A DNA stretch of 64,000 nucleotides, taken from NCBI GenBank assembly GCA_040386695.1, contig JAZKFB010000001.1, positions 8,236 to 72,235 of the forward strand, read 5' to 3'. Under the pieces are notes generated by a model. The model was not told the origin of the DNA, ran no database searches, and saw nothing but the letters and a program-made list of their open reading frames with translations. The translations under genes were made by a program, and so were the position numbers. This DNA comes from Verrucomicrobiota bacterium. GTDB taxonomy: Bacteria > Verrucomicrobiota > Verrucomicrobiia > Verrucomicrobiales > V1-33. Below, piece by piece: positions 29,755 to 46,503 of this stretch (positions are counted from its first letter, which is position 1; the number at the start of each line of letters is the position of its first letter).

Positions 29755-30069
29755 TTAAATTTTATTATAGCCACACGAGGCGAACCAATTCGCGGCATTC
29801 TCCGGGGTCACGGCGTCAAGGGCCGCCGCGATGGCCTCCAGCAGTTTTTCATGCGTCCGGGCGGCGGCTTTGCGCAGCAGTGTTTTGACTTTGCTCCACA
29901 TTTTTTCAATGGGGTTGAGATCCGGGGAATACGGCGGCAGGAACCGGACCTCCGCTCCGGCGTCTTTGATCAGGGCCACAGCGCCCGCTGTTTTGTGGAC
30001 CCGCAGGTTGTCCATGATGACCACATCGCCCGCGCGCAGGGTGGGCAGGAGAGTAGCCGCCTTTAGCAT
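29755..30069 (-). pseudogene. IS630-family transposase, 3' (DDE C-terminal) fragment only
   Basis: LLPTLRAGDVVIMDNLRVHKT...FLPPYSPDLNPIEKMWSKVKTLLRK...WFASCGY carries the second D and the E of the DDE_3 domain. The N-terminal two-thirds are absent, and homology stops where the Tn3-type IR begins. Confidence 0.75.
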
Positions 30070-30100
30070 ACGATTTATTCCGTTTTCCCTCAGGACCCCC
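30060..30100. repeat. Solo Tn3-family (Tn21-like) terminal inverted repeat
   Basis: The reverse complement is GGGGGTCCTGAGGGAAAACGGAATAAATCGTATGCTAAAGG. It is nearly identical to the tnpA-proximal IR at 43417-43454 and resembles the Tn21 IR (GGGGTCGTCTCAGAAAACGGAAAATAAAGCACGCTAAG). The GGGG (outer) end is at 30100. Confidence 0.7.
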
Positions 30101-30197
30101 TCCTTCAATTTCTTTCGCTCCTGGGTCAATTGGGACCCGCTCCGAACCCGGATACTTGCCTTGCATCGCCACCCCGCGCATGCAGATTCGCTGGACA

Positions 30198-30923
30198 ATG
30201 CAATCCGAAGACGGTCCCTCTTTATTCCCGGACACACGCTGGAGTTTGGTGCTTCGGACAAGGGATTCGGCGCATGCCTCCCGGGCGCTGGAGGAGTTAT
30301 GCGGTGCTTATTGGTATCCACTCTATGTGATGGCACGGCGCAGCGGGGTGCGGGAGACGGATGCCGAGGATCTCACCCAAGATTTTTTCTGCCGGATCAT
30401 GCAGCGCAGCCTCTTTCCCCGGGCCGAACAGGCCAAAGGCAAGCTGCGTTCCTATCTTCTGATGTCTTTCAAGAATTTCCGCATCAACGAATGGCGGAAA
30501 GAGGCACGCCGGCCGGACCGGAATTCCGGACTGGATGTGGACTGGGGAAAGGTCCGGGAAGGATTTCCGGATCTGGATGCAGATCCTCAGATGACTCCGG
30601 ACAGGATTTATCTGCGGCAATGGGCGATGTCACTGCTGGAAACGGCCATGGAGGATATCGCGACAGAGATGGAACATTCAGGGAAGGGAGAGCTTTTCGC
30701 GGTTCTGCGCCCGCTGATTGAGTCCGAAGGCCGGCATGGACAGCAGGAGGAGTGTGCCCGCGCTGCGGGCATTAGCTATCAAGCCTTCAGAGTGACGCTT
30801 TCCCGCCTGCGCCGGCGCTTTGGCATTATTGTGCGCGGAAAGGTGGCCGACACTCTGGATAATCCGACTCCTGCCGCAATTGACGAGGAGCTGCTGGAAC
30901 TGCGGCGTGCCATGGAGTGGTGA
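30198..30923 (+). CDS. ECF sigma factor of the PVC-type, STK-associated group (ECF43-like)
   Basis: MQSEDGPSLFPDTRWSLVLR carries the TRWS motif. The sigma-2-like region is YWYPLYVMARRSGVRETDAEDLTQDFF. The sigma-4-like HTH is ECARAAGISYQAFRVTLSRLRRRF. Confidence 0.8.
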   Translation: MQSEDGPSLFPDTRWSLVLRTRDSAHASRALEELCGAYWYPLYVMARRSGVRETDAEDLTQDFFCRIMQRSLFPRAEQAKGKLRSYLLMSFKNFRINEWRKEARRPDRNSGLDVDWGKVREGFPDLDADPQMTPDRIYLRQWAMSLLETAMEDIATEMEHSGKGELFAVLRPLIESEGRHGQQEECARAAGISYQAFRVTLSRLRRRFGIIVRGKVADTLDNPTPAAIDEELLELRRAMEW

Positions 30924-43026: not shown

Positions 43027-43416
43027 AAAATGGTGATGACTGCGGTATTATTTATGCTATTTTGCCGGACCCGCCAAGGTTCCCAGCAGAATTTTATTAC
43101 AATCACTTCAAGTCATTCACACGAACACCTGCAACGTCAGAAGCATGGAAAATTTTGTCAATTTCATATAAAATATCCTTTGTAGATTTAAGGCCGTTTC
43201 CGCGGAAGTCATGCCGCACGGTTTCATTTAACAGCTACTACCGGGATTGCTCTTTTTTGTGACTGAAGAAAATAATATTTTTGCCGGAATGCCGGGTGTG
43301 GCACGCATGGGTGAAACAGCGGATCTGGCTAAATGGATGCTTCATGAGCGTCTTCGACACTGATTACGGGGTTGGGCGTCCTCATTCCGGAAGCCCGGCA
43401 CCCCAATCCCCTGACT
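43027..43416 (-). promoter_or_regulatory. AT-rich upstream region of the five-gene cluster
   Basis: About 390 bp, markedly more AT-rich than its surroundings, lying between the cluster start and the Tn3-family IR. No promoter motif could be assigned with confidence. Confidence 0.3.
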
Positions 43417-46400
43417 GGGTCCTCAGGGAAAACGGAATAAATCGTACGCTAAGGGCTGAAGCCGGGCCTGAGTGGCCGCAATTTACCCGCTCTGTCCTTG
43501 GAAAGTGCGGGCCAGAGATAATCACCGCTCAGATTGATGTGTTCTCAGCCCAGCGGGGACGGATATTGCAGAAGCTGGTCATCATCAGCGGCATCTTTCC
43601 TGCTGAGGGATTCGATGCAGCGCTGCAGGTAGGTGGTGTTCCAGAGGACGATGGCGGCGATGACGAGGCTGAGATCGCTGGCGCGGTGACGCTGCTGGTC
43701 GAAGCTGCGGTCCCGGATTTCGCCGAGGCGGTGGAAGAAGACTGCCCGCGCCAGGGCGTTGCGGGCCTCGCCTTTGTTGAGTCCGGCATGGCGCGCCGGC
43801 GCAGTTCCGTGCTTTGCAGCCACGTGAGAATGAAAATGGTGCGCTCGATCCGCCCGAGTTCGCGCAGCGCCAGAGCGAGCCCGTTTTGCCGGGGGTAGGC
43901 GGCCAGCTTCCGGAGAATGAGTGAGGCGGTGACTGTGCCCTGCCGGATGGAGGGGGCCAGGCGCAGCAGGTCCTCCCAGTTGGCTTTAAGGTGGGACAGG
44001 TTGATTTTCCCTCCGATCAGGGATTTCAGGGCGGGATAGTCCGCCTCCGGCCTGGGCACAAAGAGGCGGGTCTCGTTCAGGTCCCGGATACGCGGGGCAA
44101 ACTTGAACCCAAGGAGGTGCATCATGCCGAAAACATGGTCGGTGAACCCGGCGGTGTCGGTGTAGTGCTCCTCGATGCGCAGATCGGACTCATGATAGAG
44201 AAGCCCGTCGAGGACATAGGTGGCATCCCGCACGCCGACATTGACCACTGTGGTGCTGAAGGGAGAATACTGGTCCGAGAGGTGGGTGTAAAACATCCGT
44301 CCGGGATCGGAGCCATACTTCGGATTGACGTGTCCGGTGCTCTCAGCGCGTCCGCCGGATTTGAACCGCTGGCCGTCTGATGAGGACGTGGTGCCGTCGC
44401 CCCAGTGGCGGCGAAGGGATGCCGGAGCTGGGCATTGACCAAGTCAGCCAGCGCGGCCGCATAAGTGTCATCGCGGATGTGCCATGCCTGCATCCATGAG
44501 AGCTGGGAATAGGGAATGCCCGGACTGGAGGCCGCCATTTTCACGAGTCCGAGATTGATGGCGTCGGCCAGAATAGCGGTGAGGAGGAGCGCTTTGTCTT
44601 TGACCGGTTCCCCGGTTTTCAGGTGCGTGAACTGCCGGGTGAAGCCCGTCCAAGCGTCAACCTCCAGGAGCAGTTCCGTGATTTTGATGTGCGGCAGCAG
44701 GGCCGCCGTCCGGTCGATCAGCTCCTGGGCGGCGGGGGGAACAACCGCGTCCAGCGGAGTCATTTTAAGCCCGGCTTCGGTGATGATGGCGTCCGGCAGA
44801 TTATTGGTCAGAGCCAGCCCGTTCACGATTTCAAACTGCTCCTCCAGCAGGGTGGTCCGCTCTCTGATCCAGTCGTCCCCGTCGGTTTTCACGGACAGCG
44901 GAATGGTGCCTGTTTTCCTCAGCTCCCCGAAAGCCGGAGCGGGAATGAGGTAATCCTCAAAGTCCTTGAACTGGCGTGAGCCTTTGACCCAGATGTCGCC
45001 CGAGCGCAGGGCGTTTTTCAGTTCGCACAAAGCGCAGAGCTCGTAGTTGCGCCTGGTCCGTGCGCACCAGCTTTTCCCAGCGCTTTCTGATGAAGGCCGT
45101 GGGCGCGCCCGCAGGCAGCTCTTTTAAAGACCCAGCATGAAGCGCCTGAATTTGCTCCACAGCCTCCAGCACCGGCCGGCCGGCGGGAGCGGCTTTGAAC
45201 TGAAGTGCTTCCAGCATAGCGGGCGCATAACGGCGGATGGTCGGCCAGCTCTCCGCCAGCAGGTGGAGGAAATCGAACTCCTCCGGCTGGGAAAGTTTGC
45301 CGGTCTCCGCGACACCGGCCGCGAACTCCTCCCATGGCATCACGTTCTCAATGGCCGCGAAGGCATCGCCTCCCTCCGCCTTCGCTTTCACCAGCGCGCG
45401 GCCGATCTTTCCATAAAGCAGAAGCTGGTCGTTGATCCGGCGGCCGGACTGCTGGAAACGCTGCTGATGTTTGTGGCGGGCCGCATTGAGCAGCCTGCCG
45501 ATGATGCGGTCGTGAAGATCAATGATCTGGTCGATCACCGTGGCCGTGCCCTCGACAGCCAGAGCCACTAGGGTGGCATATTTCCGCTGAGGCTCATACT
45601 TTCCAAGGTCCCGCGAAGTCATCTGCCCGCCCTCACGCGCCATCTTCAGCAGGCGGTTCTGATGAATCCGACGGTCCAGACCATCCGGAAGCCCCAGAGA
45701 CTGAAATTCCCGGAGCCGGTCAATGTGCTCCATCATCTGGCGCGAATTGGGCTTCAGAGGGGACTGGCGCAGCCATGTGATCCACGTCAGACGGGTGCCC
45801 GGTTTCACCCTCAGCCACGCGTCCAGCCTCTCCTGCTGAGCTGTGGAGAGTGAATCCGCAAGAAGGGCACAAACTCTCCGATTGGCCTCGGTGATGGATG
45901 ACGCGCAGAGCCGGTCCAGCACTTCCACCGGAGGAGCAGCCACTTTAAGACGCCGCCATTCCTCCATGGCTTTGGCCGCCAGCAGAGCCCCTTTGTCCGT
46001 CCGCATGGCGAGCGCGCACAAAAACGACCTCGAACGCCGGAAATCACTGAGCCTGAAGGGCGTGAGCTCCAGCCAGGACCGGAGTTCCACCAGATGCTCC
46101 CGGCGGGTCTGTGCCCGGGAGGCATAAGACAGCCAGCAGGAGGTATCGATCCGGAGCTGACGCCCAACCCATTGGATCACGGTATCGCTGACCTCCCTCC
46201 CCGCCTCCAGTCCCCGCCCCGGAAACCGGAGCAGGCAAAGCTGCACCGCAAAGCCCAGCCGGTTGGCCTCGCCCCGCCTCTGCCGGATGAGGGAGAGATC
46301 CCTTTCGCTGAAGGAATAATGTCTGGCGAGCTCCTCCTCCGTTGCGGGTGGAGACATCAAATCTGAACGCTCGGCGGGGGTCAGGAGAGATTTACGGGGC

Positions 46401-46503
46401 ATTTTCCTCCGCTACCCCATGCGGAAACTCCCCTAAACAGAGTCTGCACCCCGGGCGTGGAGCCTTAGCGTGCAATTTTTTCCTTTTTCTGTGATCACCC
46501 CCC
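43417..46503. mobile_element. Minimal Tn3-family element (IR-tnpA-IR, no resolvase or cargo), decayed
   Basis: The left IR at 43417-43454 is GGGTCCTCAGGGAAAACGGAATAAATCGTACGCTAAGG. The right IR, read on the reverse strand, is GGGGGGTGATCACAGAAAAAGGAAAAAATTGCACGCTAAGG and ends at 46503. The two IRs are about 29/38 identical and both resemble Tn21. No 5-bp target duplication is evident. Confidence 0.8.
43449..46402 (-). pseudogene. tnpA: Tn3-family transposase, multiply disrupted
   Basis: The N-terminus is MPRKSLLTPAERSDL...RLGFAVQLCLLRF. The reading frame jumps at about 45.0, 44.2 and 43.8 kb. TGG has become TGA at 43545-47, inside SPLG(W)[11 protein letters not shown]. The reconstructed frame stops at a TAG inside the IR (43449-51), as in Tn21-type elements. 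Confidence 0.85.

Follow-up and report, generated by a model that had tools for sequence, protein, structure and literature searches.

Two terminal inverted repeats (IRs) of the Tn3 family face each other across 13.3 kb of the window (the whole 64,000-nucleotide stretch of Verrucomicrobiota DNA analysed), a segment of ordinary Verrucomicrobial genes, and this inward-facing pair is ordinary debris of a divergent Verrucomicrobial Tn3 lineage. On balance, it seems somewhat more probable than any other course of events that the two IRs are separately decayed relics of one Verrucomicrobial Tn21-subgroup lineage, left by independent insertions, of which the left one was reduced to its IR. The replicon is conjugative plasmid-like, its backbone carrying iterons, RepA, ParA, a TrwC relaxase, a coupling protein, type IV secretion genes and ArdC, and the relics lie in its accessory region. 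The facing IRs are as follows:

30060-30099, minus strand: solo Tn3-family IR of the IRa type, with its GGGG outer end at 30099 pointing right into the bracketed segment
43417-43455, plus strand: IRa, the tnpA-3'-proximal IR of the resident element, with its outer end pointing left

Read from its outer end (30099/30100), the solo IR is GGGGTCCTGAGGGAAAACGGAATAAATCGTATGCTAAAG, and one extra C stands at 30100, just past that end; IRa reads (T)GGGTCCTCAGGGAAAACGGAATAAATCGTACGCTAAGG from its outer end at 43417. The two match at 35 positions over 38-39, with 4 of 39 differing, and have an identical core of 22 nt. By scanning the 64 kb with IRa at up to three mismatches, exactly two sites were found, 43417-43454 (plus strand) and 30061-30098 (minus strand). 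A repeat search ranked the pair as the top inverted repeat of the window (40 nt at 93%). No IRa-type match arose in 100 dinucleotide-preserving shuffles (0/100), which rules out chance similarity of the solo IR and IRa. These searches agree with the original prediction of a solo Tn21-like IR resembling IRa in inverted orientation, with GGGG ends pointing inward across 30101-43416. Its count of two substitutions and one 1-nt indel needs amendment: the internal substitutions stand (positions 9 and 32) and the inner-end difference, CTAAAG in the solo IR and CTAAGG in IRa, can be read either as a substitution or as a 1-nt indel, and the terminal G-runs differ too, with five G in the solo IR and three in IRa. 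Both are genuine Tn3-family (Tn21-subgroup) IRs, and both are broken. Their outer ends face each other across 13,316 bp (30101-43416). In composite or TIME-COMP-like elements the outer ends point away from the cargo; here both point into the segment, in keeping with the earlier statement that this is not a composite transposon. Since the ends face inward, the pair cannot mobilise the 13.3-kb segment.

IRa belongs to a resident element at 43417-46501, whose other parts are:

43449-46402, minus strand: tnpA pseudogene of the Tn3 family, Tn21 subgroup, full length and broken
46464-46501, minus strand: IRc, the tnpA-5'-proximal IR, 62 bp upstream of the tnpA start, with its outer end pointing right

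This element is a Tn3-family member of the Tn21 subgroup, and it is dead, because its tnpA carries three frameshifts (at about 45055, 44407 and 43790) and one nonsense codon (TGA, 43545-43547) and IRa lacks its terminal G. Two intact TnpA queries in tblastn covered residues 1-984 in frames -3, -1, -3 and -2, and the Pfam domains DUF4158 and DDE_Tnp_Tn3 are spread over three open reading frames; homology to a large DDE transposase (~990 aa, with both domains) is present in a gene that is not intact. The tnpA sequence is identical in Logan contig L003, and its stop codon (TAG, 43449-43451) falls inside IRa. Terminal IRs of ~38 bp running from GGGG to ACGCTAAG are found at both ends, fully canonical in IRc and canonical save for its GGG in IRa. 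In the three-IR alignment called for by the original prediction, the close agreement held between the solo IR and IRa, but IRc and IRa are alike at just 29-30 of 38 positions. IRc agrees at 31 of 38 positions with the Tn21 IR, and the IRs of two annotated relatives were read directly for comparison. The element carries tnpA alone and no cargo. No tnpR, tnpI or res site was found within it, and the 62 bp between the tnpA start (46402) and IRc (46464) leave no room for a resolvase or res site; the flanking open reading frames likewise contain no recombinase domain. Among 5.8 billion proteins, the closest intact homologue of the reconstructed TnpA is 66% identical, so that no close intact relative defines the native element, and TnpA here represents a deep, otherwise unsampled branch.

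The element resembles Tn21, Tn501 and TnShfr1 in its 38-bp IRs, in a ~985-aa TnpA with DUF4158 and DDE_Tnp_Tn3, and in a tnpA stop codon inside the adjacent IR; proteobacterial Tn21-type members show ~73% nucleotide and 64-66% amino-acid identity to its tnpA and TnpA. Unlike them, it has no tnpR, res site, cargo or 5-bp duplication, its tnpA is a pseudogene and its host is a Verrucomicrobiota metagenome-assembled genome (MAG). The layout of tnpA alone between two IRs is that of IS1071, whose IRs are about 110 bp; in contrast, the IRs here are 38 bp and TnpA clusters with the Tn21 subgroup. The tnpA-only minimal form could instead be a deletion derivative.

To the left, the solo IR adjoins remnants of two genes:

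29560-29742, minus strand: uvrA2-like 3' fragment, the last ~58 codons, cut off by the IS630 fragment
29752-30058, minus strand: IS630-family transposase 3' fragment of ~100 codons, its 5' two-thirds and the other IS end missing

At the protein level, the uvrA2-like fragment corresponds to the C-terminal end of class II UvrA (PDB 2vf7, residues 790-842; E=2e-27). The IS630 fragment covers positions 69-145 of 146 in Pfam DDE_3 and 222-298 of 299 in NCBIfam IS630, homology to a full-length IS630 (Shinella, tblastx) begins at ~30051-30057, and the inner end of the solo IR joins the fragment within a few bases, which bears out the claimed fusion of the left IR to the interior of an IS630 transposase gene. 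The full DDE transposase, terminal IRs and TA duplication of a complete IS630 are lacking at 29752-30058, and the missing 5' part was found nowhere else in the window. No trace of tnpA-derived sequence lies to the left of the solo IR. A partner IR was sought within 30 kb leftward and not found, so the solo IR is not part of another complete element. That candidate, a complete leftward element, is ruled out, backbone genes occupying the region, in agreement with the original view of the left IR as a solo relic. No IR matching at least 25 of 38 positions exists in the window besides the solo IR, IRa and IRc, and none was found in the 5.3 kb past its right end. Logan contig L001 (run SRR26324619) is identical to 29890-43446, which shows that the bracketed structure is not an artefact of one assembly. 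The ends of Logan contigs imply that 29752-29919 (168 nt) is repeated in the sample; the join between backbone and IS630 crosses this repeat and is known from the source assembly alone.

The target sequences next to the IRs bear on how the pair arose. Among the flanks of the three IRs, any pairing, direct or inverted and at any offset, matched at best 3 of 5 bp. For the element 43417-46501 itself, CTGAC/TGACT set against CCATT/ATTGG reached 3/5 at best, so it has no 5-bp direct duplication of its own, and some rearrangement or flank decay must have taken place. In-place duplication would have the 13.3 kb inverted by intramolecular replicative transposition in trans, or by recombining inverted copies, with the left copy later deleted to its IR. 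The same tnpA-3'-proximal IR type abuts the segment on both sides, in exactly the geometry that such an event predicts, and the absence of an own duplication at the resident element is also expected, with Tn4401 as a precedent (PMC4471558). In IS26 and Tn4401, such inversions leave matching inverted target sequences at reciprocal ends (PMC4471558). The present arrangement resembles those cases in that inverted element ends bracket a segment and the surviving copy has no abutting duplication, but it differs in that one copy is reduced to an IR and the diagnostic inverted target duplicate is absent: every reciprocal inverted pairing, including 30100-30105 against the IRc flank (46502-46508), matched at 3/5 or less, the second reciprocal pair lying outside this comparison as the outer end of the left copy is gone. 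The check proposed originally, 30101-30105 against the reverse complement of 43412-43416, likewise gave at most 3/5, which leaves the proposal of intramolecular replicative transposition with inversion unsupported. Furthermore, tnpA sequence is absent to the left of the solo IR, and the differences between the IRs, 4/39, are star-like around an external consensus. In-place duplication is therefore a minority possibility in our estimation. Tn3-family target immunity also acts against intramolecular transposition events and counts against it as well.

On a circular replicon, which has to be assumed, the pair would face outward when followed from IRa around the circle to the solo IR, and the backbone would become the transposable unit of a replicon fusion, with the 13.3 kb as captured target. 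Only topology and the plasmid-like backbone speak for this. Its predicted direct 5-bp duplication between 30100-30105 and 43411-43416 is absent, the IRa terminus is damaged, tnpA is dead and the DNA right of the element is accessory rather than backbone, which leaves replicon fusion highly implausible. Neither simple insertion nor an inversion through intramolecular transposition nor replicon fusion finds a fitting 5-bp duplication.

Copies of this IR family elsewhere supply the external consensus. When GTDB species genomes and JGI metagenomes were scanned with the 22-nt IR core, the only matches were the two ends of a TIME (Tn3-derived miniature element) in the Verrucomicrobiales MAG RYN_636, one decayed TIME of the same IR family on a JGI contig and one chance match; neither the island nor the element turned up a second time in these collections. 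The RYN_636 element, 233 bp long and bounded by two IRa-type 38-bp IRs, has the make-up of a TIME, i.e. two Tn3-type IRs around a non-coding core of <300 bp, and its contig carries an ArdC gene with 82% nucleotide identity to that of the window. Its left IR matches both the solo IR and IRa at 37 of 39 positions, each departing from it at two separate positions. Such star-like differences around the TIME consensus IR suggest, as far as sequence comparison goes, that the solo IR and IRa are separate decayed copies of one family and not recent mutual copies from an in-place duplication. This argument rests on small numbers, 4 differences in 39 positions. IRa-type IRs are also 87-92% identical to IRs on known plasmids. 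The ends of Logan contigs at 43446 and 43426 imply, by inference from the k=31 graph, a second context for the 39-nt IRa in the same sample.

As a special case of independent origin, the solo IR may be the stub of a TIME or a product of one-ended transposition. A related Verrucomicrobiales MAG has a 233-bp TIME whose IRs are almost the same, on an ArdC-bearing contig, and the CTAAAG inner end of the solo IR fits the TIME left IR and not IRa, a similarity argument of a single nucleotide. According to PMC4133298, it is common to find solo Tn3-family IRs, and TIMEs that lack direct repeats, and the same source discusses one-ended transposition and solo IRs; its TIMEs measure about 262 bp and were described from Gammaproteobacteria, chiefly Pseudomonas. 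Unlike TIMEs, formed by this IR family both in RYN_636 and in the decayed JGI copy, the solo IR stands single, no TIME core sequence lying beside it, and unlike composite elements of two TIMEs, the pair faces inward. We consider a TIME stub or a one-ended product unlikely.

Under the separate-relic reading, a tnpA-only, IS-like element (43417-46501) would have inserted in the intergenic space between the CotH/LTD gene and the five-gene operon. It would then have died through the three frameshifts, the nonsense codon and the loss of the IRa terminal G. A second element with the same IR type, be it a full copy or a TIME, may have landed ~230 bp upstream of the gene for the ECF sigma factor, and IS630 activity with illegitimate deletion may later have stripped it to its terminal ~40 bp. 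The IR would thereby have come to abut codon ~215 of the IS630 transposase gene, beside the truncated uvrA2-like gene; inward facing would simply be one of two possible orientations for two independent insertions. The order of these events and the independent origins of both IRs are what we infer. Loss of a second, inverted copy to the left, which the original prediction had offered as an alternative, is, we think, essentially what happened. Counting against separate relics, the deletion endpoint lies ~3 bp from the inner edge of the IR, a coincidence under random deletion, and the resident element is without the 5-bp duplication expected of an undisturbed simple insertion. Target immunity of the Tn3 family, moreover, would be expected to work against a second cognate insertion into the same replicon.

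The bracketed segment, as described by Pfam and NCBIfam results and gene calls on the Logan contig, contains the following:

30101-43416: bracketed segment, 13.3 kb
30330-30923, plus strand: ECF sigma factor
30941-31357, minus strand: 138-aa protein
31541-32641, plus strand: GT1 glycosyltransferase
32972-36037, minus strand: Ser/Thr kinase with TPR repeats
36215-37888, plus strand: 557-aa secreted-type protein
38018-43026, minus strand: five-gene operon

The module of 138-aa protein, glycosyltransferase, kinase and 557-aa protein is syntenic with chromosomal contigs L013, L012 and L011, and its glycosyltransferase/kinase/557-aa core is found in the chromosomes of relatives without IRs. Judged by this synteny, the core of the segment is a native chromosomal module of related Verrucomicrobia. 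The suggestion that the island arrived through Tn3-family activity is consequently not sustained, given also that inward ends cannot mobilise it. The top non-self homologue of the central island protein is 50% identical, so public data hold no sister replicon for an empty-site or inverted-site comparison; PLSDB contains no close plasmid relatives, tnpA alone being matched (~73%).

The facing pair has no function at present. An identical core of 22 nt does not suffice for efficient homologous inversion, and no working transposase or resolvase gene was found in the ~69 kb examined of the 87.5-kb contig. The most that the IRs could still do is provide target immunity or serve a related trans-acting transposase elsewhere in the cell. 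A bolder interpretation would have IRa-type repeats mark a still-active, undescribed Verrucomicrobial Tn21-subgroup branch with TIMEs of its own, the pair being what remains of an inversion driven by a transposase, through which the ECF sigma/kinase module came into new regulatory surroundings on a conjugative plasmid; this we regard as quite improbable.

The finding offers nothing for a new mobilisation mechanism and carries little weight for general biology. For annotation, the lesson is that inward-facing solo IRs are not to be taken as transposon boundaries of the intervening DNA. Tn21-type elements and TIMEs have mostly been described from Proteobacteria; the present case adds Verrucomicrobiota plasmids as a setting for Tn21-type elements of the Tn3 family and for a miniature derivative of 233 bp, and it shows that nested insertions and deletions have shaped the accessory region of this replicon.

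Repeat comparison confirmed that the Tn3-family inverted repeats (IRs) described in the original prediction are real, as is their geometry, in which the outer ends of the solo IR and of IRa face each other across 30101-43416. Three repeats are concerned:

30060-30099, minus strand: lone IR (solo IR)
43417-43455, plus strand: IR proximal to the tnpA 3' end (IRa)
46464-46501, minus strand: IR proximal to the tnpA 5' end (IRc), bounding with IRa the resident element (43417-46501)

The solo IR and IRa form the strongest inverted repeat of the window, and their match was not reproduced by any shuffled sequence. 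Read from the outer end, the solo IR is GGGGTCCTGAGGGAAAACGGAATAAATCGTATGCTAAAG and IRa is -GGGTCCTCAGGGAAAACGGAATAAATCGTACGCTAAGG (leading gap); the terminus of IRa is GGG, as opposed to GGGG in its family. IRc is like IRa at 29-30 of 38 positions. A search for further copies had been suggested; only these three Tn3-like IRs were found in the window and the 5.3 kb to its right, the next-best candidates (21-24/38) being background.

With two Tn21-type transposases, encoded intact on Sulfuriferula and Klebsiella plasmids, as queries, tblastn covered residues 1-984 of TnpA within the resident element. The match is split over four reading-frame segments, which implies three frameshifts, near 45055, 44407 and 43790; in addition, a conserved Trp of the reconstructed TnpA is replaced by TGA (43545-43547). 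The gap between IRc and the tnpA start measures just 62 bp, so that the element lacks a resolvase, a res site and cargo. The stop codon of tnpA falls within IRa, as it does in the Tn21 subgroup; Tn21, Tn501 and IS1071 provide the reference features. Judged from its sequence, the resident element is defunct, consists of tnpA alone and belongs to a deep Tn21-subgroup branch, a placement based on the closest intact TnpA homologue among 5.8 billion proteins being only 66% identical. No 5-bp duplication was found at the element, whose flanks are TGACT (left) and CCATT (right); because it is without its own duplication, an earlier rearrangement may have occurred.

The bracketed segment, or island, is not a transposon, and inward-facing ends cannot move the DNA they bracket. 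It contains the following:

30101-43416: ECF sigma factor, small protein (138 aa), GT1 glycosyltransferase, TPR-containing Ser/Thr kinase, 557-aa secreted protein and five-gene operon
38018-43026, minus strand: the five-gene operon (149, 417, 178, 393 and 480 aa)

The operon proteins matched no Pfam or NCBIfam family, except that the 480-aa one shows a weak metzincin-like motif; the 417-aa member (41303-42556) and the 557-aa protein are paralogues. The gene order at 30941-37888 (small protein, GT1 glycosyltransferase, kinase, 557-aa protein) is kept in three chromosomal contigs of other Verrucomicrobia (L013, L012 and L011), where it adjoins the housekeeping genes for prephenate dehydratase and biotin synthase and where the comparison revealed no IRs. 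Identities are 34-69% (best contig), and these four genes form a conserved chromosomal module of Verrucomicrobia. For the central island protein, the closest homologue other than itself is 50% identical, and no sister replicon of the island was found in the databases searched.

It had been proposed that the island arrived or was inverted through Tn3-family activity, the geometry being read as what is left by intramolecular replicative transposition with inversion or by loss of a second, inverted copy on the left. When such transposition occurs in trans, two inverted copies result, with the target sequence present once at each, inverted, as described for IS26 and the Tn3-family Tn4401 (PMC4471558). 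In the present layout, the testable pair for inversion is the solo IR flank and the IRc outer flank. All three flank pairings, including the canonical, replicon-fusion and originally proposed ones, were compared in direct and inverted orientation at offsets of -1 to +2, and no 5-mers matched above 3/5 in any of them. The predicted reciprocal 5-bp duplication was therefore not borne out, and the inversion model is left without its diagnostic signature and thus unsupported. Nor does arrival through Tn3-family activity follow from the IRs, since their inward ends cannot move the segment.

On the left-hand side, as originally noted, the solo IR is fused to an IS630-family transposase gene, whose last ~100 codons (minus strand) begin within about 3 bp of the IR inner end and run leftward. 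This fragment ends near 29752, where it adjoins a second gene remnant:

29560-29742, minus strand: orphan 3' fragment (last ~58 codons) of a uvrA2-like (class II uvrA) gene, cut by the IS630 fragment

Beyond it come first non-coding DNA, then ArdC. The 5' part of the IS630 gene is absent elsewhere in the window, and the relic consists of truncations stacked on one another. Since the junction, located at the IR's inner edge, coincides with an end of neither element, it cannot be the direct product of either transposase; we infer an illegitimate deletion joint.

Relatives of the IR were found among Tn3-derived miniature elements (TIMEs). A 22-nt core is common to the solo IR and IRa; of 185,579 GTDB species genomes, only 1 contains it (Verrucomicrobiales MAG RYN_636), and JGI contigs yielded one true match. 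In RYN_636, each of the two core matches is terminal on its contig, and the two contigs overlap by 127 nt; together they contain:

L007 (JAQGPJ010000050.1) 5505-5668 plus L006 (JAQGPJ010000002.1) 1-196, joined via the 127-nt overlap: TIME-like element of 233 bp, bounded on each side by an IRa-type IR

Possibly no TIME had been seen before in Verrucomicrobiota. One flank of the element is a distantly related tnpA of the Tn3 family, which it disrupts and which a DDE_5 insertion sequence splits as well; on the other contig there is an ArdC gene with 82% nucleotide identity to that of the window. The left IR of this TIME is consensus-like in appearance; it is matched at 37/39 positions by both the solo IR and IRa, whose mismatches to it do not coincide, and these two agree with each other at 35/39. 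Small as the numbers are, such a star-like pattern fits better with two copies of one IR family decaying separately than with in-place duplication. A decayed TIME (JGI Ga0190271_10067140, 2582-2801) is 81-84% identical to the RYN_636 element, one of its own IRs having an internal truncation. The 5 nt flanking its right IR on the outside are TGACT, the same as at IRa, which may be coincidence or target preference.

The contig from which the window comes belongs to a Verrucomicrobiota MAG and is 87.5 kb long; the window makes up its left ~64 kb. A protein identical to the 557-aa protein of the window bears a V4726_ locus tag at NCBI. The main remaining features of the window are:

First 29 kb: conjugative-plasmid backbone with ParA, TrwC relaxase, coupling protein, type IV secretion genes and ClpB-like ATPase
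6511-6677: six iterons, ~22-33-bp-spaced, directly upstream of repA
6727-8325: RPA-type repA
28297-29202: ArdC (backbone)
After the IR-bearing region: CotH/LTD protein, sulfatase, 7TMR-DISM histidine kinase and large secreted proteins

All DNA to the right of the first 29 kb is accessory, beginning with the IR-bearing region. Long tandem repeats of 69 and 243 bp lie at 355-2190, within a BspA-type LRR protein gene (103-2580). Window positions 16609-29781, 29890-43446 and 43426-53740 are base-for-base identical to three short-read Logan contigs from SRR26324619, of which L002 ends at 29781, L001 spans 29890-43446 and L003 starts at 43426. For a k=31 graph, ends placed like these would mean that exactly the 39 nt of IRa (43417-43455) are present in a further context within that sample. 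The contig ends likewise imply that the 168-nt IS630 end (29752-29919) is repeated elsewhere in it, so that the backbone-to-island join in the source contig crosses a repeat.

Altogether, the simplest account of the solo IR and the resident element is two independent insertions by elements of one Verrucomicrobial Tn21-type lineage, one of which would have given rise to the pseudogene element at 43417-46501 and the other to the solo IR.
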